From Rhizobiaceae bacterium (GTDB taxonomy: Bacteria; Pseudomonadota; Alphaproteobacteria; Rhizobiales; Rhizobiaceae), in assembly GCA_050247155.1 (NCBI GenBank), contig JBFWUS010000021.1, forward strand, positions 3,666 through 67,665: a stretch of DNA of 64,000 nucleotides. The letters run 5' to 3'. Made by a program: the position numbers and the translations under genes. This document shows positions 39,645 to 50,578 of the stretch, in pieces (the first letter of the stretch is position 1; every line of letters starts with the position of its first letter). The notes beneath the pieces were generated by a model, which worked only from the letters and a program-made list of their open reading frames with translations, was not told where the DNA came from and ran no database searches.

Positions 39645-40457
39645 TTGCAGTTTGCCCGATTGAACGGCATCGTCATGCACTACCAGCTTATCGGTACGGC
39701 GCCCGGCAAGCCGACCCTGGTGTTCGCCAATTCGCTGGGCACCGATTTCCGCATCTGGCGAGACGTGGTCTTGCGGTTGGCGGGTGATTACGCGATCGTT
39801 CTTTACGACAAGCGGGGCCACGGCCTGAGCACACTGGGTGATGCGCCGCACCGGATCGAAACCCATGCCGCCGATAGCGCGGCTTTGCTGGACCATCTTT
39901 CCGTGAAATCGGCGATCTTCTGCGGCCTTTCGATCGGCGGCTTGATTGCGCAGGCGTTGTACGCCGCGCGGCCCGACCTGATCCGCGCGATCATCTTTTG
40001 TGATACCGCGCACAAGATCGGCACCGCCGAGATGTGGAACGGACGTATTGCCTCGGCTCGCGGTCCGGGTATCGCAAGCTTTGCCGACGGCGTAATGGAA
40101 AAGTGGTTCACGCCGGATTTTCATGCCTACCGCGCCGACGAACTGAGCGGCTATCGCACCATGCTCGCCCGGCAGTCCGTTGAAGGCTATGCGGCCGCCT
40201 GCGCCGCCATTCGCGATGCCGATTTCAGCGCGGTGGCCAGGCGCATCGCCGTTCCGGCAATGTGCGTGGTGGGCGATCAGGATGGTTCGACGCCGCCCGA
40301 ACTCGTTCGCTGGCTGGCTGATCTGGTTCCCGGCGCACGCTTTGAGATAATCGCCGACGCGGCGCATATTCCTTGCGTCGAGCAGCCGGCCGCGCTGACG
40401 GCGTTGCTTGTCGATTTCATCGCGAAACTGCCGGCGGAAGCAAACGCGAATGGCTGA
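39645..40457 (+). CDS. pcaD: 3-oxoadipate enol-lactonase
   Basis: NSLGTDFRIW, YDKRGHGLS, GLSIGG, HIPCVEQP; TTG start after GAGGAG. Confidence 0.93.
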   Translation: MQFARLNGIVMHYQLIGTAPGKPTLVFANSLGTDFRIWRDVVLRLAGDYAIVLYDKRGHGLSTLGDAPHRIETHAADSAALLDHLSVKSAIFCGLSIGGLIAQALYAARPDLIRAIIFCDTAHKIGTAEMWNGRIASARGPGIASFADGVMEKWFTPDFHAYRADELSGYRTMLARQSVEGYAAACAAIRDADFSAVARRIAVPAMCVVGDQDGSTPPELVRWLADLVPGARFEIIADAAHIPCVEQPAALTALLVDFIAKLPAEANANG

Positions 40458-40854
40458 GATTGGCGGCAAACCCGAGCGCCGAGCCCAGGCTATGTCGACG
40501 CGCCGCCAGGTGCTCGGCGACGCTCACGTCGACCGGGCGATTGCCGCGACGACCGATTTTGACCGACCGTTTCAGGAACTCATAACCGAGGCTGCCTGGG
40601 GCCATGTCTGGTCACGCCCGCACTGGTCGAAGCGGGAACGGTCTGTCGTCACGATCGCCCTGCTTGCGGCTCTTGGTCATCATGACGAACTGGCGATGCA
40701 CATTCGCGCCACCGCAAACACCGGCGCGACTCGCGACGACATCGCCGAGGCACTGATGCATGTCGCGATCTATGCCGGCATTCCCGCCGCCAACGCGGCC
40801 TTTCGCGTGGCCAAGCAGGAGTTGGAAAACATGGGCGGCGGTAAGGCCGGCTAA
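40450..40854 (+). CDS. pcaC: 4-carboxymuconolactone decarboxylase
   Basis: [35 protein letters not shown]. Confidence 0.92.
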
Positions 40855-40855
40855 G

Positions 40856-41602
40856 ATGGTCGATCGTTCCCACAAACCGGAGACGACCCCGTTCTTCGCA
40901 CGCGATCGAGACAGGCAGCCGCCCGCCTATACGCCGTCTTATAAGACATCGATCCTGCGTTCGCCGCAAAAGGCGCTGCTATCCTTCGACAATTCCATAT
41001 CGGAGATCGCCGGCCCGGTTTTCGGTCACTCCCTGCTTGGCGAACTGGACAACGACCTGATCCACAACTTCGCCAAGCCGGGCGAATCCGCTATCGGCGA
41101 GCGCATCATCGTCCATGGCCGGGTTCTCGACGAGCGCGGCCTGCCGGTTCCGGGTGCTCTGCTGGAATTCTGGCAGGCCAATGCGGGCGGGCGCTACCGG
41201 CATAAGAAGGAAGGCTATCTCGCGCCTTTGGATCCGAATTTCGGCGGCTGCGGCCGCGCTATCACCGCACATGACGGCAGCTATGCATTGCGCACGGTCA
41301 AGCCAGGCCCCTACCCTTGGCCGAATGGCCCGAATGACTGGCGTCCAGCGCACATTCATTTTTCCGTGTTCGGCCATGGCTTCGCCCAGCGGCTGATCAC
41401 CCAGATGTATTTCGAAGGCGATCCGCTGATCTGGCGCTGTCCGATCGTGCGCACCATCCCGGACAAAAGGGACATCGAAAGCCTGATCGCGCCGCTCGAC
41501 ATGGCCAACACCGTTCCCATGGACGCTCGCGCCTACAAATTCGACATCGTTCTGCGCGGCCGGCGTTCGACTCCGTTCGAAAACCGTCCGGAGGGCAATT
41601 GA
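40856..41602 (+). CDS. pcaH: Protocatechuate 3,4-dioxygenase beta subunit
   Basis: [33 protein letters not shown]. Confidence 0.95.
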
Positions 41603-42216
41603 TGCCGCAGGCGCTCGATCTTTTGAAGGAAACGGCTTCCCAGACGGCGGGGCCATATGTCCATATCGGCCTGACGCCGAATTTTTGCGGCATCGGCGGC
41701 GTCTATCTGTCCGACCTCGGCGGATCAATGGTGGAGGCCAGAACGCGCGGCGAGCGGATCACGGTGCGCGGCCGGGTGATCGACGGCGCCGGCGCGCCCC
41801 TGCGCGACGCGTTGGTGGAGATTTGGCAAGCCGATGCCGACGGCCTTTACAACAGTCCGGCCGAAACCCGCGGCGCGGCCGACCCTCACTTCACCGGCTG
41901 GGGCCGTTGCGCAACCGACGATGCCAGCGGCGAATACAGGTTCGATACCATCAAGCCAGGCCGCGCACCTTTCCGGGATGGCCGCTGGATGGCGCCGCAC
42001 ATCACCGTCTGGATCGTCGCGCGCGGCATCAATCTCGGCCTGCACACGCGCATGTATTTTGCGGATGAGGCAGCGGCCAATGCCGAGGACCCGTTGCTCG
42101 CACGCGTCGAGCATCGCCACCGTGTAGCGACGCTGGTCGCCCCGCGCGATGGTGACGTCTACACCTTCGACATCCATTTGCAGGGCGATAAGGAAACGAT
42201 ATTCCTCGACATCTGA
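41602..42216 (+). CDS. pcaG: Protocatechuate 3,4-dioxygenase alpha subunit
   Basis: ETASQTAGPYVHIGL, WQADADG, ARGINLGLHTRMYF. Confidence 0.95.
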   Translation: MPQALDLLKETASQTAGPYVHIGLTPNFCGIGGVYLSDLGGSMVEARTRGERITVRGRVIDGAGAPLRDALVEIWQADADGLYNSPAETRGAADPHFTGWGRCATDDASGEYRFDTIKPGRAPFRDGRWMAPHITVWIVARGINLGLHTRMYFADEAAANAEDPLLARVEHRHRVATLVAPRDGDVYTFDIHLQGDKETIFLDI

Positions 42217-42252
42217 CCGACCTTTCGGGAACCATGGCATGTATGGTGGCGC

Positions 42253-43314
42253 GTGACGTTTTCCCCGTTCGATCATCCCTTCCTGGCCGGCCTTCTGGGG
42301 GACGAGGAAATCGCCGGCTATTTTTCCGCCGACGCTGATGTGCGCGCCATGCTTGCCTTCGAGGCCGCGCTGGCGAATGCGCAGGCCGAATGCGCGATCA
42401 TTCCGCCGGAGGCTGCCACGCACATCGCAGCGGTCAGCGCCGATTTCGCGCCAGACTTCGACCGGCTGCGGGTGGCAACGTCGCATGACGGCGTCGTGGT
42501 TCCCGAACTGATCCGACAGTTGCGCGCCGCCGTCGAGCCGCACGCCCGCTGGGTTCATTTCGGTGCGACGAGCCAGGATGTCATCGACAGCAGTCTGATG
42601 TTGCGCCTGAAACCGGTGCTGGCCGTTCTGGACAATCGTATAGGCGTTTGCGAACGCGTCTTTGATGATCTGGAACGCCGCTTCGGCCGCAACCGCCTGA
42701 TGGCCCGAACACGGATGCAGCCGGCAATCGAAATCACTGCTGTTGATCGTATCCACGCATGGCGTGAGCCACTGGGACGTATCCGAGATGATCTCAATCA
42801 TTGGCGGCGCGACAGCCTGGCAATCCAGTTCGGCGGCGCAGCTGGTACGTTGGAAAAGCTGGATGAACGCGCAGCCGCCGTGCGCGCGGCGCTGGCGCGG
42901 GTGCTCGATCTGGCGGACGCGCCCCAATGGCATAGCCAGCGCGACCGTATTGCCGGTCTGGCCGGCATCCTGTCACTGGTCAGCGGGTGCCTTGGAAAAT
43001 TCGGACAGGATGTCGCTCTCCTTGCGCAGGAAGGCGACGAAATACAACTTGCCGGCGGCGGCGGCTCGTCGGCCATGCCGCATAAGCAGAATCCGATTGC
43101 CGCCGAAGTGCTGATCGCATTGGCGCGCTTCAACGCGACGCAGCTTGCAGGCATGCATCAGGCGCTGCTGCACGAACAGGAGCGTTCCGGCGCGGCGTGG
43201 ACGCTCGAGTGGCTGATACTGCCGCAAATGGTCGCCGGTACAGCGGCCTCGCTGCGTCTGGCCGTGGAACTCGGCGCCAACATCCGGACGTTGGGCAAGG
43301 CGGCGGAAGCTTAA
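42253..43314 (+). CDS. pcaB: 3-carboxy-cis,cis-muconate cycloisomerase
   Basis: HFGATSQD, GSSAMPHKQNP fumarase-family signature, HEQERSGAAW. Confidence 0.93.
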   Translation: MTFSPFDHPFLAGLLGDEEIAGYFSADADVRAMLAFEAALANAQAECAIIPPEAATHIAAVSADFAPDFDRLRVATSHDGVVVPELIRQLRAAVEPHARWVHFGATSQDVIDSSLMLRLKPVLAVLDNRIGVCERVFDDLERRFGRNRLMARTRMQPAIEITAVDRIHAWREPLGRIRDDLNHWRRDSLAIQFGGAAGTLEKLDERAAAVRAALARVLDLADAPQWHSQRDRIAGLAGILSLVSGCLGKFGQDVALLAQEGDEIQLAGGGGSSAMPHKQNPIAAEVLIALARFNATQLAGMHQALLHEQERSGAAWTLEWLILPQMVAGTAASLRLAVELGANIRTLGKAAEA

Positions 43315-44287: not shown

Positions 44288-45793
44288 CTACTCGACCGGC
44301 TCCGCCGCACGCGCCGATCGGACGCCCGCGCCCACGGAAGCAACCCTATCGTCGGCATGCACGCGGGCGATCAGATGATCGCCAAGCCTGCAGGCAAGCG
44401 CGGTGATCGTCGTCGTTGGGTTCGTCTGCCCGGACGTTGGAAATACCGACGACCCGCCCACAAAGAGATTGCGCATGCCGTGCACCTTGCAATCGGCGTC
44501 GACCACGCCGCGTGCCGGGTCGTTGCTCATGCGGGTGCCGCCCATATGGTGGTTGCCCGCCAGTTCCATGTCGTCAAACGGATAGGGCTCGCCATTGGCA
44601 AGCCAGTCGGCCAGGCGAACGCGCCCGATATCCCGTTCGATCAGAGCCTGGCCGAACAACCGCATGCCTTCGATCAGCGTTCTATGGTCAAGCGGACCTT
44701 TGCGCCAATGAAGATCGATACGGGGCACTCCGGATGCGTCGCGCATCGTCCGGCTGAGCTGCACACGGTTGCTGGCAAGCGGCGCCTGCTCCCACGCCAT
44801 GTGCAGTTGCGCCGCGCATTTCAGCCGTTGGCCTAAACCTTCGGACATCCACTCCGCGGCGCTCGGCGCCGTGCAGGCTAGATTGGCCATCAGCATCTTG
44901 ACGCCATCATAGGGCATTTCGACCAGCCGGATGCCGAAATTCAAGATGCCTTTGCGTTGCATCGCCTCCCAGCTCGGCGAGAAAAACGCCTCGCCATCGG
45001 CGTCGACCTCGAATTTCGTGACGTCGTTGAGAACGGCATTTCCACATTCGAAATGCGGATGTTCCATCCAGTAGCGGCCCAGCGCCTGCGCATACGGCAC
45101 GACCGCTCTGTTGCTCAGTTCGTTGGACCAGAGCAGCAGCCGCGAGTTCTCGATCCCTCCTGTGCCGACGACGACATAGTCGGCATGAAAGCGGTCCAAC
45201 TGCCCGTCAGGCGACCAGAGGTTGAGCGCGTTGATTGCCTGGCCGTCGCCGTCGAGCGAGGTCACGTAGCTGTTGAGTACCAAGGCAATGTGTTCATCCG
45301 CCGCCAGTTCGTCGCGGTAGCGCGTGCCAAAGCGTACAGCATTGCTCTTGATGAGCTGCACCCAGCGGATGTCGGAAGAGACCGACGCATCCGGCCTGAA
45401 GGGCTCCAATTCGAGAATCCCTCGCACCTCGTCGAGATAAGGTTCGAGGTCGCTTCGCCGGATCGGCCAGCCGGTATCAGCGACCCACGGCTTTTGCCGG
45501 AAATCCTCGTCGTCCAGCAGCCGGCACCAGCCCGCCCAATGATTGGAGCTGCCGCCCAGAAACCGCAGGCGCGTTTCATCCAGCGCAAAATAAGGATCGC
45601 CAACCGTCCGGCCGCCGTAGAAGGCTTGCGACTTGTCCGAGAAGCGGTCGCCGCCAGCTTCGAAAATGACGACAGGAATGTTGGCGCTTGCCAGTTTTCG
45701 CGCAACCGTGATGCCGGCTGGACCGGCGCCGATCACGGCTACTTTCGGCGTCCAATGTGCCGACTTGAACGCCTGAAAATTGTCGAAGATCAC
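44288..45793 (-). CDS. GMC family FAD oxidoreductase, paralogue 1 (no signal peptide)
   Basis: IGAGPAG, GGSSNHWAG, GRYWMEH, NHHMGGTRM, GQTNPT; GTG start at 45793. Confidence 0.88.
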   Translation of the reverse strand: MIFDNFQAFKSAHWTPKVAVIGAGPAGITVARKLASANIPVVIFEAGGDRFSDKSQAFYGGRTVGDPYFALDETRLRFLGGSSNHWAGWCRLLDDEDFRQKPWVADTGWPIRRSDLEPYLDEVRGILELEPFRPDASVSSDIRWVQLIKSNAVRFGTRYRDELAADEHIALVLNSYVTSLDGDGQAINALNLWSPDGQLDRFHADYVVVGTGGIENSRLLLWSNELSNRAVVPYAQALGRYWMEHPHFECGNAVLNDVTKFEVDADGEAFFSPSWEAMQRKGILNFGIRLVEMPYDGVKMLMANLACTAPSAAEWMSEGLGQRLKCAAQLHMAWEQAPLASNRVQLSRTMRDASGVPRIDLHWRKGPLDHRTLIEGMRLFGQALIERDIGRVRLADWLANGEPYPFDDMELAGNHHMGGTRMSNDPARGVVDADCKVHGMRNLFVGGSSVFPTSGQTNPTTTITALACRLGDHLIARVHADDRVASVGAGVRSARAAEPVE

Positions 45794-45925
45794 GCCTGGC
45801 TTGTCCGATCCGCACCCGGTTTGGCTCACCGCCGCAGGATAGACCAAGCTTTGAAGACAATGGTGAACAAAGGTTGAGGAGCCGACGCGAATCCCCAGCC
45901 GGCTCCCTCAATGCCAAACAGACCG

Positions 45926-47410
45926 TTAATGCAAGTCTTCGGCGATGCTCGACGGTGCGCCGACAAGCTGATGCGCGCGCACTTCGCGCGCCAGATGATC
46001 CCCCAGCCGACAAGCGAGCGCGACGATCGTGGTCGTGGGGTTGCATTGGCCCGATGTGGTGAACACCGACGAACCGCCGATATAGAGATTGCGCATGCCA
46101 TGCACCTTGCAATCGCGATCGACGATGCCCTTGGCCGGATCGTCATGCATGCGGGTGCCGCCCATGTGGTGATGGCCGGCGATCTCCTGATCGGTTGGAT
46201 AGTCTTCGCCCTTGGCCAGCCAGTCTGCCAGTTTGGCGCGCCCCAGATTCTTCGCCAGCATCGTCTCGCCGAACAGCCTTATGCCTTCGGTGACCGTGCG
46301 GCGCTCGATGTCGCCTTTCTTCCAATGTAGCTCGATGCGCGGCGCACCTGTCGCGTCGAATTCGGTCTTCGACAGTTCCACACGATTGTTTTCGTTGGGC
46401 GACTGCTCCCAGCCGACATAGAGCTGCGCCGCGCAATGCAGGCGCTGGCCCAGCGACTCCGAAACCCATTCAGCCGTATCGGGCGCGACACACGCCAAAT
46501 TTGCAACCAGCGCCTTGGCGCCCTCATAGGGCATCTTGATCAGGCGGATGCCGAAATTGAGGATCTGCCGCCGCTCCATGGCGGCAAGTGTCGGCGAGAA
46601 GAACGCTTCGCCGGTCGCGTCGGTGACAAACTCGTTCTGATCGGCCAGGATAGCGTTGCCGCCCTCGAATTGAGGATGCTCCATCCAGTAGCGGCCGAGT
46701 GCCTGCGCATGCGGCACGACCGCGCCCTTGGTCAGTTCATTCGACCACAAGAGCAGTCGCGAGTTTTCGAGCCCGCCGGTGCAGGGCACGTAATAGTCCG
46801 CTTTGTAGGTTCCTTGATCGGCGCCATCAGACCACAAATTGAGGCCGGTGACCTCGGTGCCGTTACCGTCGAGTGAGCGCACATAGGTGTTCAGCACGAG
46901 CGCAATATGATCGCTCGTTTCGATTTCGCCGCGGAAGCGTTCGGCGAACCGAACTGCCGGGCTTTTGACAAGCTCGACCCATCGAATATCGTCCGAGATG
47001 GGCTGGTCAGGCTGGAACTGCTTCAGATCCAGAATGTAGTGAACTTCATCCAGATAGGGATCGATGTCGATGCGGCGGATCGGCCAGCCGCTGTCCGGCA
47101 CCCATGACTTTGGCCGGAAGTCGATGTCGTCCATCACGCGGCACCAGCCTGCCCAATGATTGGACGACCCTCCGAAATAGCGCAGGCGCGTGATGTCGAG
47201 GTCGAAATAGTAGTCACCAACCGTCTTGCCGGCGTAGAAGGCTTGGGAATCCTCGGTGAAATCGGCGCCGCCGGCCTCGAAGATGACCACCGGGACGCCG
47301 GCCGCCGCCAGCTTGCGCGCGATGCTGATGCCTGCCGGCCCGGAACCGATAACCGCAACCTTCGGCGTGAAGCTCGCCGCGCGAAAATCCGCCAATGTCT
47401 GGAAGATCAT
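45926..47410 (-). CDS. GMC family FAD oxidoreductase, paralogue 2 (no signal peptide)
   Basis: IGSGPAG, GGSSNHWAG, HHHMGGTRM, GQCNPT. Confidence 0.88.
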   Translation of the reverse strand: MIFQTLADFRAASFTPKVAVIGSGPAGISIARKLAAAGVPVVIFEAGGADFTEDSQAFYAGKTVGDYYFDLDITRLRYFGGSSNHWAGWCRVMDDIDFRPKSWVPDSGWPIRRIDIDPYLDEVHYILDLKQFQPDQPISDDIRWVELVKSPAVRFAERFRGEIETSDHIALVLNTYVRSLDGNGTEVTGLNLWSDGADQGTYKADYYVPCTGGLENSRLLLWSNELTKGAVVPHAQALGRYWMEHPQFEGGNAILADQNEFVTDATGEAFFSPTLAAMERRQILNFGIRLIKMPYEGAKALVANLACVAPDTAEWVSESLGQRLHCAAQLYVGWEQSPNENNRVELSKTEFDATGAPRIELHWKKGDIERRTVTEGIRLFGETMLAKNLGRAKLADWLAKGEDYPTDQEIAGHHHMGGTRMHDDPAKGIVDRDCKVHGMRNLYIGGSSVFTTSGQCNPTTTIVALACRLGDHLAREVRAHQLVGAPSSIAEDLH

Positions 47411-47598
47411 GCGATCTCACTCCGGCGCAAGATCCAACCATTGACCTCGACAAACTCGTCGCCGGCAGGCGGCAGGGCAGCCGGCGGTGCTTTTCCTGAC
47501 AGGCTAGGCAATCGGGCGATTTGCCATAATGGCACAAGCATCGATGCCTGGAGCAGCAGGCTTCGTCTCGAAATGATATCGCGTCTGTCCTCGCGCAT
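47407..47598 (-). CDS. 63-aa twin-arginine mini-protein coupled to the GMC genes
   Basis: ISRRSLL Tat-like motif, C-terminal FVEVNGWILRRSEIA; its TGA overlaps the GMC ATG (ATGA). Confidence 0.65.
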   Translation of the reverse strand: MREDRRDIISRRSLLLQASMLVPLWQIARLPSLSGKAPPAALPPAGDEFVEVNGWILRRSEIA

Positions 47599-47712
47599 GT
47601 CCGTCTCCGGTCAAAGCTGTGTTTCAGTGCGGCACGCCGACCCGCCCCCGACGTGCCGCACATCGAGCAAAGCAAGTTCCGTTCCAACGCGTGATGGTGA
47701 GGAGAAGGACCG

Positions 47713-48618
47713 TCAGCCGATCGCGATCAGCATTAATATTCCGCATACGATCAACACACAGCCAGCGATCTCGAACCGGTTGATCTTCTCCTTGAAGACA
47801 AACACCGACGACGCGAAAGTGAACAGCATCTCAATTTGCGCCAGCGATTTCACCACGGCGGCCTGCTGCAGGGTCATCGCCGAGAACCAGCCGAACGAGG
47901 CCGATGCGCCGACCAGCCCGGTGAATAGCGCCGGCTTCCAGGCCTTTTTGATACGCCCGATCTCGGCACGGTCCTTTGCCAGCATCCAGGCCAGCATGAT
48001 CGCCGTCTGAAAGGTGATGACGAAGGCCAGCGTCACCGCCGCCTGCATGATGAAGTTCGGCCCGCCCAAGGCCAGCGAGGCAGCGCGGTAGGCGACCGCC
48101 GAAATGCCGAAACAGGTTCCGGACGCCAGCCCAATCAAGGCGTTGCGGCTGAAAATCGAGGTGAAAAGGCTGCGCCAGCCGACCGCCATGTGCGCGACCG
48201 AAATCAGCATGACACCGAACACGCTGATGGCGATCGCCGCCAGCACGCCCGCCGTCACGCGCTCTCCCAGAAACATCAGCCCGAACAGCGCCGCCTGCGC
48301 CGGCTCCGTGCGGGAATAGGCCGTGCCCACTGCGAAATTGCGAAACGAGAAAAGGTGGACCAGCAGAAACGTCGCCGCGATCTGGCCGATGCCGCCGATG
48401 ATAGCCCACAAATAGAAGGCTGAATTGGTCCGCGGCATGGCATAGCCAAGACCATAGTGGAGAAAGCTCACAAACAGCAGGGCGAACGGCATGCCGAAGC
48501 CGAAGCGCACGAAGGTTGCTCCCGTCGTGCCCATGACGTTCTTGAGATGTTTTTGCACCGCCGAGCGCAGATTCTGCAAAAACGCTGCTGCGATGGTGAT
48601 GGGTATCCAGAGTTCCAT
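47713..48618 (-). CDS. DMT/EamA family transporter
   Basis: About ten TM segments, duplicated halves, RNFAVGTAYSRTE. Confidence 0.85.
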   Translation of the reverse strand: MELWIPITIAAAFLQNLRSAVQKHLKNVMGTTGATFVRFGFGMPFALLFVSFLHYGLGYAMPRTNSAFYLWAIIGGIGQIAATFLLVHLFSFRNFAVGTAYSRTEPAQAALFGLMFLGERVTAGVLAAIAISVFGVMLISVAHMAVGWRSLFTSIFSRNALIGLASGTCFGISAVAYRAASLALGGPNFIMQAAVTLAFVITFQTAIMLAWMLAKDRAEIGRIKKAWKPALFTGLVGASASFGWFSAMTLQQAAVVKSLAQIEMLFTFASSVFVFKEKINRFEIAGCVLIVCGILMLIAIG

Positions 48619-48734: not shown

Positions 48735-49091
48735 ATGAAAATGTCGACCGTCTTGCGACCCAGCCAGGCGCTGCAACTCTGGCATCAGGTGACCCTCGCG
48801 GAGGTGCGCGGGATCGGGTCCGACTTGACTTTGCGACAAGCCGCGATCCTGCTCACCGTCTATCTGGAGCAGCCACCGCACACCGTGCGTGGACTGGCGG
48901 CTAAGCTCGGCGTAACCAAACCGGTGATCAGCCGCGCGCTCGACACGATGGGCGTCATGAAGCTGGTCTCGCGCCAGCGCGATCCCAGCGACCGCCGCAA
49001 CGTGCTGGTGCGGCGCACCTTGGAAGGGGCGCTCTATGTCGAGCGGCTTGGCGATGTTATCATCGCCAAAGCCAAGGACCTCCCGATTTGA
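48735..49091 (+). CDS. MarR family winged-helix regulator
   Basis: TVRGLAAKLGVTKPVISRALD, RQRDPSDRRNVLV. Confidence 0.85.
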   Translation: MKMSTVLRPSQALQLWHQVTLAEVRGIGSDLTLRQAAILLTVYLEQPPHTVRGLAAKLGVTKPVISRALDTMGVMKLVSRQRDPSDRRNVLVRRTLEGALYVERLGDVIIAKAKDLPI

Positions 49092-50003: not shown

Positions 50004-50297
50004 ATGTTCGAGGTTCGCCGTTCGACCGAGTTCGGCAATTGGCTCAAAAGCCTTCGTGACGTTCGCGCTCAGGCCCGAATTGAAAGCCGAATAGACCGAG
50101 TTGAAAACGGCAATTTTGGTGATGCGAAGTTTTTTGACGGCATCGGTGAACTTCGTATCAATTATGGACCTGGGTACCGGCTCTACTTCGTTCAGCGGGA
50201 CAAGGTGTTGATTATTCTCCTTTGTGGCGGTGATAAATCCACGCAAAGCAGGGACATTGAGAAAGCCATGGGAATGGCCAAGGAGCTACGCCGATGA
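50004..50297 (+). CDS. RelE/ParE-superfamily type II toxin (HI1419-type addiction module killer)
   Basis: FGNWLKSLRD, GNFGD, ELRINYGPGYRLYF, LLCGGDKSTQ. Confidence 0.9.
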   Translation: MFEVRRSTEFGNWLKSLRDVRAQARIESRIDRVENGNFGDAKFFDGIGELRINYGPGYRLYFVQRDKVLIILLCGGDKSTQSRDIEKAMGMAKELRR

Positions 50298-50578
50298 CTA
50301 TTGAGACGGTCAAATGGGACACATCCGAATTCCTCGACAGCGAAGAGAAGATTTTCGCCTACATCGAAGCGACGTTCGAAGATGGCGACCCCGCTTTGAT
50401 TAAGAAAGCTCTCGGCAACGTTGCCCGTGCTCGCGGCATGACCGCCATTGCCCGCGAGGCCGGCGTAACAAGGGAAGCGCTGTACAAGGCTCTTAGCGAG
50501 GAGGGCGATCCACGCCTATCGACCCTCATGGGAGTTATGAAGGCGTTAGGTATGAAATTGAACGCCGTGCCGAATTGA
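50294..50578 (+). CDS. HTH antitoxin (HI1420/HigA-type addiction module antidote)
   Basis: ALGNVARARGMTAIAREAGVTREALYKALS, GDPRLSTL; ATGA overlap with the toxin. Confidence 0.9.
   Translation: MTIETVKWDTSEFLDSEEKIFAYIEATFEDGDPALIKKALGNVARARGMTAIAREAGVTREALYKALSEEGDPRLSTLMGVMKALGMKLNAVPN

Follow-up and report, generated by a model that had tools for sequence, protein, structure and literature searches.

Could a peptide of 63 amino acids (aa) serve as the export carrier of a folded flavoenzyme? The question is raised by a small open reading frame (ORF) at positions 47407..47598 of a 64,000-nucleotide (nt) stretch of DNA from a Rhizobiaceae bacterium (assembly GCA_050247155.1, contig JBFWUS010000021.1, positions 3,666 to 67,665), which was analyzed as a whole and is called the window here. 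The ORF precedes the genes of two paralogous enzymes of the glucose–methanol–choline (GMC) superfamily, GMC1 and GMC2, and its predicted product combines a signal of the twin-arginine translocation (Tat) type, a linker and a putative docking tail. We consider it fairly probable that this product is a minimal Tat escort, i.e., a carrier on which the signal-less GMC enzyme encoded next to it hitchhikes. The strict co-occurrence of peptide and enzyme, the homology of the peptide's tail to part of a larger partner, the Tat-type features of its signal and the relatedness of the enzyme to hitchhikers already described all point to such a role.

The Small Gene and Its Product

The small gene and the two GMC genes lie on the minus strand, as do all features of the window given below unless stated otherwise. 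The three ORFs, the sequence of the 63-aa peptide and its ATGA junction with the first GMC gene were found as the original prediction, made from the sequence of the window, had described them. A Shine–Dalgarno-like GGAG (47605..47608) can be read 6 nt 5' of the ATG of the small ORF. In the translation, the twin arginines R11-R12 (RR; codons at 47563..47568), which are kept in relatives, stand inside S-R-R-S-L-L-L-Q and are followed by a hydrophobic region (h-region), SLLLQASMLVPLWQIA (47515..47562), and then by the basic residue R29, as delimited by hydropathy and by comparison with relatives. A variable, Pro/Ala-rich linker (residues 29–46; 47461..47514), recognized by its length variation and its ratio of nonsynonymous to synonymous substitution rates (dN/dS), leads to the invariant C-terminal tail DEFVEVNGWILRRSEIA (47410..47460), which stands out by dN/dS and by alignment to the long partner described below and which we propose to be a docking beta-hairpin. 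The TGA of the peptide and the ATG of GMC1 overlap in ATGA (47407..47410), and it is proposed that this overlap couples their translation. After the signal, at most ~35 residues are left in the precursor, and 17 of them are conserved.

By hidden Markov model (HMM) and pattern search, the peptide gene is single-copy across the whole genome, which also encodes tatC. The Tat-signal end of PF12318 and the TAT_signal model are weak matches to the peptide (E 0.03–0.06), and searches of Pfam, NCBIfam, PDB sequences and Foldseek gave nothing significant for the peptide or its long relative.

Is the small ORF a true gene? A scan of relatives, with one genome per species, yielded 80 loci, nearly all from Mesorhizobium and its allies, at a GMC identity of 65–73%. 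Every one of the 80 has a homologous small ORF whose stop codon overlaps the GMC start by 4 nt (ATGA in 76, GTGA in 3 and TTGA in 1). The 81 peptides compared range from 50 to 71 aa and have a single architecture, in which a basic N-terminus is followed by S-R-R-x-[IL]-V-Q, an h-region with a median length of 14 aa and a mean Kyte–Doolittle hydropathy of 2.2, and an R or K as the first charged residue past the h-region (80 of 81 sequences). The RR pair is invariant in 81/81 close relatives and in 20/20 deep ones. The linker, rich in Pro, Asp and Ala, varies between 8 and 28 residues among the relatives, and indels are confined to it and are always in frame. The tail follows the pattern [DE]-[EI]-[IF]-V-E-[VI]-N-G-W-I-L-[KR]-R-S-[DE]-[LI]-A, and the distance from GW to the C-terminal end is exactly 10 residues in all 81 sequences.

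The tail has the lowest dN/dS (0.17), followed by the signal region (0.32) and the linker (0.62), at a synonymous divergence of 0.46–0.71. The conservation is, therefore, at the level of the protein and not of a ribosome-binding site or RNA structure, which makes the small ORF a genuine gene under purifying selection; chance could not plausibly produce such a pattern. It is almost never annotated by gene callers; a search of 5.8 billion protein sequences found only 8 peptide clusters, as against 80 named genomes that encode the peptide. An AxA motif lies within the linker of 54 of the 81 relatives, and, consequently, cleavage of the signal is neither clearly conserved nor excluded.

A frameshift fusion of the peptide with GMC1 was also considered and was rejected, as the overlap is of the ordinary coupling type with no slippery site visible, and as other loci have partners encoded without an overlap or downstream of the GMC gene.

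Linkage of the Peptide and the Enzyme

Does the peptide accompany the enzyme across genomes? Among 151 genomes of the window's taxonomic family, the GMC enzyme is present in 19 and absent from 132. A full-length match to the peptide profile lies directly beside the GMC gene in 17 of the 19; the remaining two carry the peptide sequence too, as found by eye, one in a diverged form (…LLLKDGWLVFEEDLA) and one frameshifted at a locus where a stop codon interrupts the GMC as well, which brings the total to 19/19. The profile search gave a full-length match in none of the 132 GMC-less genomes, where the few weak matches are confined to the signal portion of unrelated long frames. These counts bear out the conservation of the ORF and its co-occurrence with this GMC clade, both of which the original prediction had named as checks on its reading. 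At locus L105 (G356:C1:90600-93300), the partner ORF is frameshifted between …GEGLVVH and NGWVLRAGDLAESIRS, and the adjoining GMC frame is interrupted by a TAG. Either the locus is decaying or the assembly is in error here.

Two further species of the window's own genus have neither the peptide gene nor the GMC gene, and the pair is therefore an accessory two-gene module. The conserved unit comprises the peptide–GMC pair only, and its neighbors vary between lineages.

Distant Relatives and the Origin of the Tail

Across the class, a search gave 13 loci with GMCs of 31–45% identity, of which 10 have a partner within 1.5 kb. Short partners (45–60 aa) are found at seven of the 13, for example, MNRRFFLVGL…TIVVANGWLLDSNDI and MKKIARRTFLGQV…PIVIVNGWVLKRADL; six of these lie upstream of the GMC gene, four of them overlapping its start, and one lies downstream. 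At three of the 13, the partner is ~130 aa long and ends in …RDFxxGxIVxIDGWVLARSEARLCALxxL. When 20 deeply divergent short partners are aligned, R11, R12, G54 and W55 are the sole invariant columns, which is what one would predict for a peptide with two functions, targeting and docking.

The long partner family, Tat-signal proteins of 120–150 aa, comprises at least 314 clusters, and all of the source names listed for it are "hypothetical" or "uncharacterized" protein; N825_04850 of Skermanella stibiiresistens is an example. In 36 long partners, the RR pair is invariant or nearly so, and none of the 36, which have no Pfam domain, matches PF12318 or PF13618. A long partner adjoins a GMC gene in 5/5 look-ups, in either gene order, and at 3/3 genome loci. 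The AlphaFold2 (AF2) model of a long partner, with a predicted local distance difference test (pLDDT) score of 82, consists of a signal helix, a disordered stretch, a confident helical domain, a beta-hairpin and a terminal helix, and its DGW motif is held in the beta-hairpin (strands 110–113 and 116–119). With this model, Foldseek retrieved no chain from the PDB below E = 1, and the family's profile finds no PDB sequence.

The short tail aligns to the long-partner hairpin tVviDGWvLARSE over 17 columns (hhalign 94.8%, E 4.9e-8), and, judged by this alignment, it is homologous to the C-terminal hairpin of the long partner. The two families share the RR signal, the gene neighborhood and the hairpin [ILV]V-x-[ILV]-[DNG]-G-W-[ILV]-L-x-R-S-[ED], whereas the ~90-residue helical domain before the hairpin and the terminal helix (ARLCALxxL) after it are found in the long form and are both missing from the short one.

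In the GMC tree, the enzymes with short partners form one clade (support 99/95), and the other clade (95/89) holds all eight enzymes with long partners plus two partnerless ones. The tree thus splits by partner size, which indicates that the size of the partner changed once and has been stable since. It is likely, though not certain given that the tree has no fixed root, that the short form arose by reduction of the ~90-residue globular escort domain.

At a locus of Enhydrobacter (L097, L098, 621-5969), a long partner and its GMC gene come directly after MdoG- and MdoH-like genes, of the kind that serves the synthesis of periplasmic glucans, and before a large polyketide synthase/nonribosomal peptide synthetase gene. 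Going by this one context, the substrate might be a glucan or glycoside of the periplasm. Locus L092 has a natural in-frame partner–stop–GMC junction, and five other loci are out of frame or overlapping at this point.

The GMC Enzymes

GMC1 (45926..47410), assigned by Pfam, AF2 and Foldseek, is a signal-less flavin adenine dinucleotide (FAD) oxidoreductase of 494 aa, and GMC2 (44288..45793), assigned by alignment and Pfam, is its tandem paralogue, with 65% identity to GMC1 over 486 aa. The longest frame of GMC2 opens at a TTG at 45847; the alignment with GMC1 and all relatives favors a GTG at 45793, which is the probable start and gives a product of 501 aa. The two enzymes match the Pfam domain GMC_oxred_C with 95.7 and 100 bits (cut-off 24.6). 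They do not match PF00732 (GMC_oxred_N), and their N-terminal half is therefore divergent. Both contain GxGxxG at residues 22–27, where it reads GSGPAG, NHW at 84, the HHMGG histidines at 414/415 and NPT at 457/458, and in the GMC alignment, H414, H415 and N457 show little or no variation. The features of the GMC superfamily, i.e., an FAD-binding GxGxxG fold and a C-terminal domain with a catalytic His and a His/Asn pair, are thus in place, as had been predicted. Neither enzyme has an N-terminal signal, and the first Rossmann strand begins 16 residues past Met1, close to the prediction that the enzymes start directly at this fold. The predicted lack of a cytochrome c subunit also holds, as no ORF with CxxCH lies between 43.0 and 50.5 kb, and the 3Fe-4S cysteine cluster motif, CC-x-C-x-C, is found in neither GMC.

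The AF2 model of GMC1 (pLDDT 85; predicted template modeling score 0.86) has its best Foldseek matches in the large subunit of fructose dehydrogenase and the alpha subunit of Burkholderia cepacia glucose dehydrogenase (BcGDH), at E ~1e-24, with C-glycoside oxidases and pyranose oxidases next in rank. The sequence search ranks the solved relatives of GMC1 in the same order, which places the BcGDH alpha subunit among the best matches by both sequence and fold. It is probable that the enzyme acts in the periplasm as a sugar or polyol-type oxidase or dehydrogenase and works without an Fe-S or cytochrome relay.

Why is the signal not simply fused to the enzyme? The GMC clade comprises 2,852 clusters at E < 1e-30, and in the best 150 cluster representatives, we found no N-terminal signal extension and no natural partner–GMC fusion; two N-terminal extensions among them are not Tat signals. 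The extreme N-terminus, M-I-x-D, is nearly invariant in short- and long-partner enzymes alike, and it forms a short strand of high confidence in the model. We infer that this constrained strand may be the reason.

The original prediction had treated the two GMC enzymes as a pair. The wider comparison speaks against this as a conserved unit, as each of the 80 related loci has one GMC; among the syntenic close relatives, L107 has one GMC, L099 has one GMC and a SnoaL gene, and L106 has two GMCs. By this comparison of loci, GMC2 is a lineage-specific tandem duplicate. Its branch in the GMC tree is longer than that of GMC1 (0.39 vs. 0.18). The genome holds these two close GMC paralogues, and HMM and pattern searches revealed no second partner gene for GMC2, either upstream of it or elsewhere in the genome. 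On the other hand, the genome G428 carries two complete short-type partner–GMC pairs (C1:1012244-1013832 and C1:4050531-4052141), each with its own partner, and G242:C88 carries two long-type pairs (L092, L095) ~10 kb apart, again each with its own partner; in contrast to both, the window has one peptide and two GMC genes.

The spacer between GMC1 and GMC2 is 132 nt long. Folding of the spacer places a GC-rich hairpin, GAGGGAGCCGGC...GUCGGCUCCUC, just 3' of the GMC1 stop (45876..45909), followed by AACCUUUGUUC (to 45865). The hairpin is not significant against shuffles (z = −1.1), and a terminator and promoter scan gave nothing above chance. The hairpin might lower read-through into GMC2.

A Proposed Minimal Tat Escort

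How could so small a product move a folded enzyme? In the mechanism that we propose, a single mRNA would yield the peptide and GMC1 in near-equal amounts through ATGA stop–start coupling. GMC1 would fold and bind FAD in the cytoplasm, and the 17-residue C-terminal hairpin of the peptide (EFVEVNGWILRRSE) would dock onto the folded enzyme. The twin-arginine signal (S-R-R-x-L-L-x, a short h-region and a basic residue) would then engage TatBC, and the complex would pass into the periplasm, where the signal might be cut, leaving a peptide of 20–30 residues on the enzyme, or might be kept as a membrane tether. The flexible linker would only need to bridge the distance between translocase and enzyme. 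GMC2, which has no carrier of its own, might share the peptide of GMC1, ride with GMC1 or remain cytoplasmic. In evolutionary terms, the peptide would be the signal plus the terminal hairpin of the globular ~125-aa escort of the sister GMC clade.

Of these steps, only the first has evidence in the sequence, namely the conserved overlap. The original prediction had proposed that about 15 residues suffice as an export handle; the comparative side of this proposal stands, through the invariance of RR and GW, the co-occurrence, the homology of the tail and the kinship to hitchhikers, and from these, we infer the remainder, i.e., the near-equal amounts, peptide–enzyme binding, export and the fate of the signal.

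Several observations weigh against an escort function. The matches of the peptide to the Tat HMMs, given above, are below threshold; the h-region is short and contains a proline; and a cleavage site is not conserved among the 81 peptides. The peptide and its long relatives fall outside the known hitchhiker families by both sequence and fold, and three of the 13 distant GMC loci have no partner within 1.5 kb. In the AF2 model, the hairpin of the long partner is packed into the confident globular domain and is, therefore, possibly a structural element and not a contact surface. Finally, the presence of one peptide for two GMC genes in the window is unexplained.

More tentatively, and at somewhat less than even chances, the peptide may represent a natural "signal peptide in trans", that is, an ancient and stable class of Tat carrier that consists of a signal and a 17-residue beta-hairpin clip, has probably shrunk from a ~90-residue domain and moves a 54-kDa folded flavoenzyme; one peptide may serve both paralogues and then tether them. 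If the escort reading is true, the natural lower bound for a Tat hitchhiker carrier would be a signal joined through a spacer to a single short hairpin, and the docking motif would be defined and portable, which would make it a candidate export tag. The GMC clade of 2,852 clusters would shift from presumed cytoplasmic to presumed periplasmic, two partner families outside Pfam (the short one and that of ~125 aa) would join the known GMC escorts, and the small gene would be a clear case of a functional microprotein missed by standard annotation.

Alternative Explanations

Could the peptide serve the enzyme without being exported together with it? It could be dedicated to assisting the folding or flavinylation of a GMC that does not leave the cell's interior with it, or to tethering this GMC to the membrane; the peptide may then be inserted alone, by Tat or by Sec/YidC, with the enzyme active in the cytoplasm or on the cytoplasmic side of the membrane. 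The sub-threshold Tat scores and the lack of a conserved cleavage site fit such a role, and the Tat-annotated partners of FAD glycoside oxidoreductases are called chaperone-like and are reported to raise the solubility of their enzymes (PMC4650693). We nevertheless regard it as unlikely, since the basic residues before the hydrophobic stretch would place the tail on the periplasmic side, across the membrane from a cytoplasmic enzyme, since the RR pair is invariant although the remaining signal drifts, and since the closest solved enzymes are periplasmic hitchhikers.

It is very improbable that the small ORF is mainly a cis-acting leader whose translation opens the GMC1 start, or delivers ribosomes to it, while the peptide itself has no role. 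The tail is under strong amino-acid selection, with its synonymous sites variable; the same motif occurs in partners that lie downstream of the GMC gene or do not overlap it; and the peptide shares homology with a segment of a folded protein. These observations outweigh the two that a leader would account for, i.e., an ATGA-type overlap kept in all 80 loci and a short ORF that is rarely called as a gene.

The remaining alternative, which the original prediction had offered, is that the peptide is a precursor resembling those of ribosomally synthesized and post-translationally modified peptides, oxidized by the GMCs and exported as a product by the EamA transporter encoded upstream; the proximity of a small peptide gene to the genes of two oxidoreductases and a transporter does recall such clusters, but the idea is barely credible, as the recognition element, protease, cyclase and ABC exporter of peptide maturation are all absent from the locus, EamA is upstream in just 7 of the 80 loci, a twin-arginine signal would be an odd leader, a single GMC is the rule among related loci, and the invariant tail, a docking-type hairpin that sits in a ~90-residue folded domain in relatives, is unlike a core peptide.

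Neighboring Genes

Outside the conserved core, the gene of the EamA/DMT transporter (Pfam EamA) lies upstream of the peptide gene at 47713..48618. A divergent gene for a MarR-family regulator (48735..49091, plus strand; Pfam MarR and MarR_2) is syntenic in the closest relatives. The argB gene converges on the GMC genes from downstream, an NlpC/P60 gene is also among the neighbors, and in Mesorhizobium, the pair is accompanied by a GGDEF gene and a phenylalanine hydroxylase gene. No operon context hinting at the substrate is conserved, as the neighbors differ between lineages.

Two further groups of genes were seen in the window. A run of ORFs on the plus strand (39645-43314), named by reading their translations only, resembles the protocatechuate branch of the beta-ketoadipate pathway and comprises an alpha/beta-hydrolase-like ORF (39645-40457), a small carboxymuconolactone-decarboxylase-like ORF (40408-40854), two dioxygenase-subunit-like ORFs (40760-41602 and 41599-42216) and a lyase-like ORF (42253-43314). 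At 50004-50578 (plus strand), two small ORFs of 97 and 94 aa with an ATGA overlap have the look of a RelE/ParE-type "addiction module killer" and its helix-turn-helix antidote; the same place in L107 holds genes of the Gp49 and dnstrm_HI1420 families.

Comparison with Known Systems

If the peptide is a minimal Tat escort, how does it relate to the escorts already described? Like a known hitchhiker pair, the module has a small partner with the Tat-type signal pattern S-R-R-x-[IL]-[VL], for which HMM support is sub-threshold, and a signal-less GMC enzyme encoded beside it. The large subunit of fructose dehydrogenase is exported on a Tat-signal small subunit. For BcGDH, it is reported that the alpha subunit reaches the periplasm via a Tat-signal small subunit, that this gamma subunit is a five-helix protein, and that the partner's hydrophobic C-terminal tail covers the contact area of the enzyme and makes prominent interface contacts (PMC6719666). 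The arrangement in the window resembles that of the BcGDH gamma subunit and of PF12318 proteins in that a Tat-signal protein is encoded beside a signal-less GMC catalytic subunit. On the other hand, the precursor here has 63 aa, as against a five-helix gamma subunit, and the genome's own PF12318 partner lies in a frame of 180 codons. The short form is too small for the gamma-subunit fold, and the long relative has neither this fold (PDB 6a2u chain A) nor that of the fructose dehydrogenase small subunit. The best match to the PF12318/PF13618 profiles reached 14.1–14.3 bits (E 0.055), below the cut-off of 24.2, and covered profile positions 1–54 only. Unlike the BcGDH-type complexes, the enzyme here is without a 3Fe-4S cluster, an inter-subunit cysteine and a cytochrome c subunit.

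The original prediction had described the partners of such enzymes as much larger and as usually accompanied by a cytochrome c subunit. The former is true of PF12318 and PF13618; the latter needs correction, because the FAD glycoside oxidoreductases of Rhizobium sp. GIN611 and A. tumefaciens are encoded by two-gene modules with no cytochrome subunit, in which the stop and start codons overlap and the partner is required for a soluble, active enzyme (PMC4650693). The module in the window is like these modules in its two genes, overlapping codons and lack of a cytochrome subunit, and it is unlike them in that their partners are larger and lie downstream of the enzyme; this genome's own PF13618 partner lies in a frame of 229 codons and has roughly 170 aa from its likely start. 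The conventional PF12318 and PF13618 Tat small subunits of the same genome are encoded near other GMC paralogues of the same contigs (C36:30324-30866 and C13:33370-34059, reverse-strand count), and classical and minimal escort systems would, therefore, coexist in one cell.

In engineered Tat hitchhiker systems, small interaction modules suffice. The constructs described in one report use a Tat signal on one partner to carry a bound signal-less partner (PMC4273604). Those systems are artificial, whereas the escort proposed here would be a natural, conserved carrier with little beyond a signal and a clip. What is new here is the partner family and its small size.

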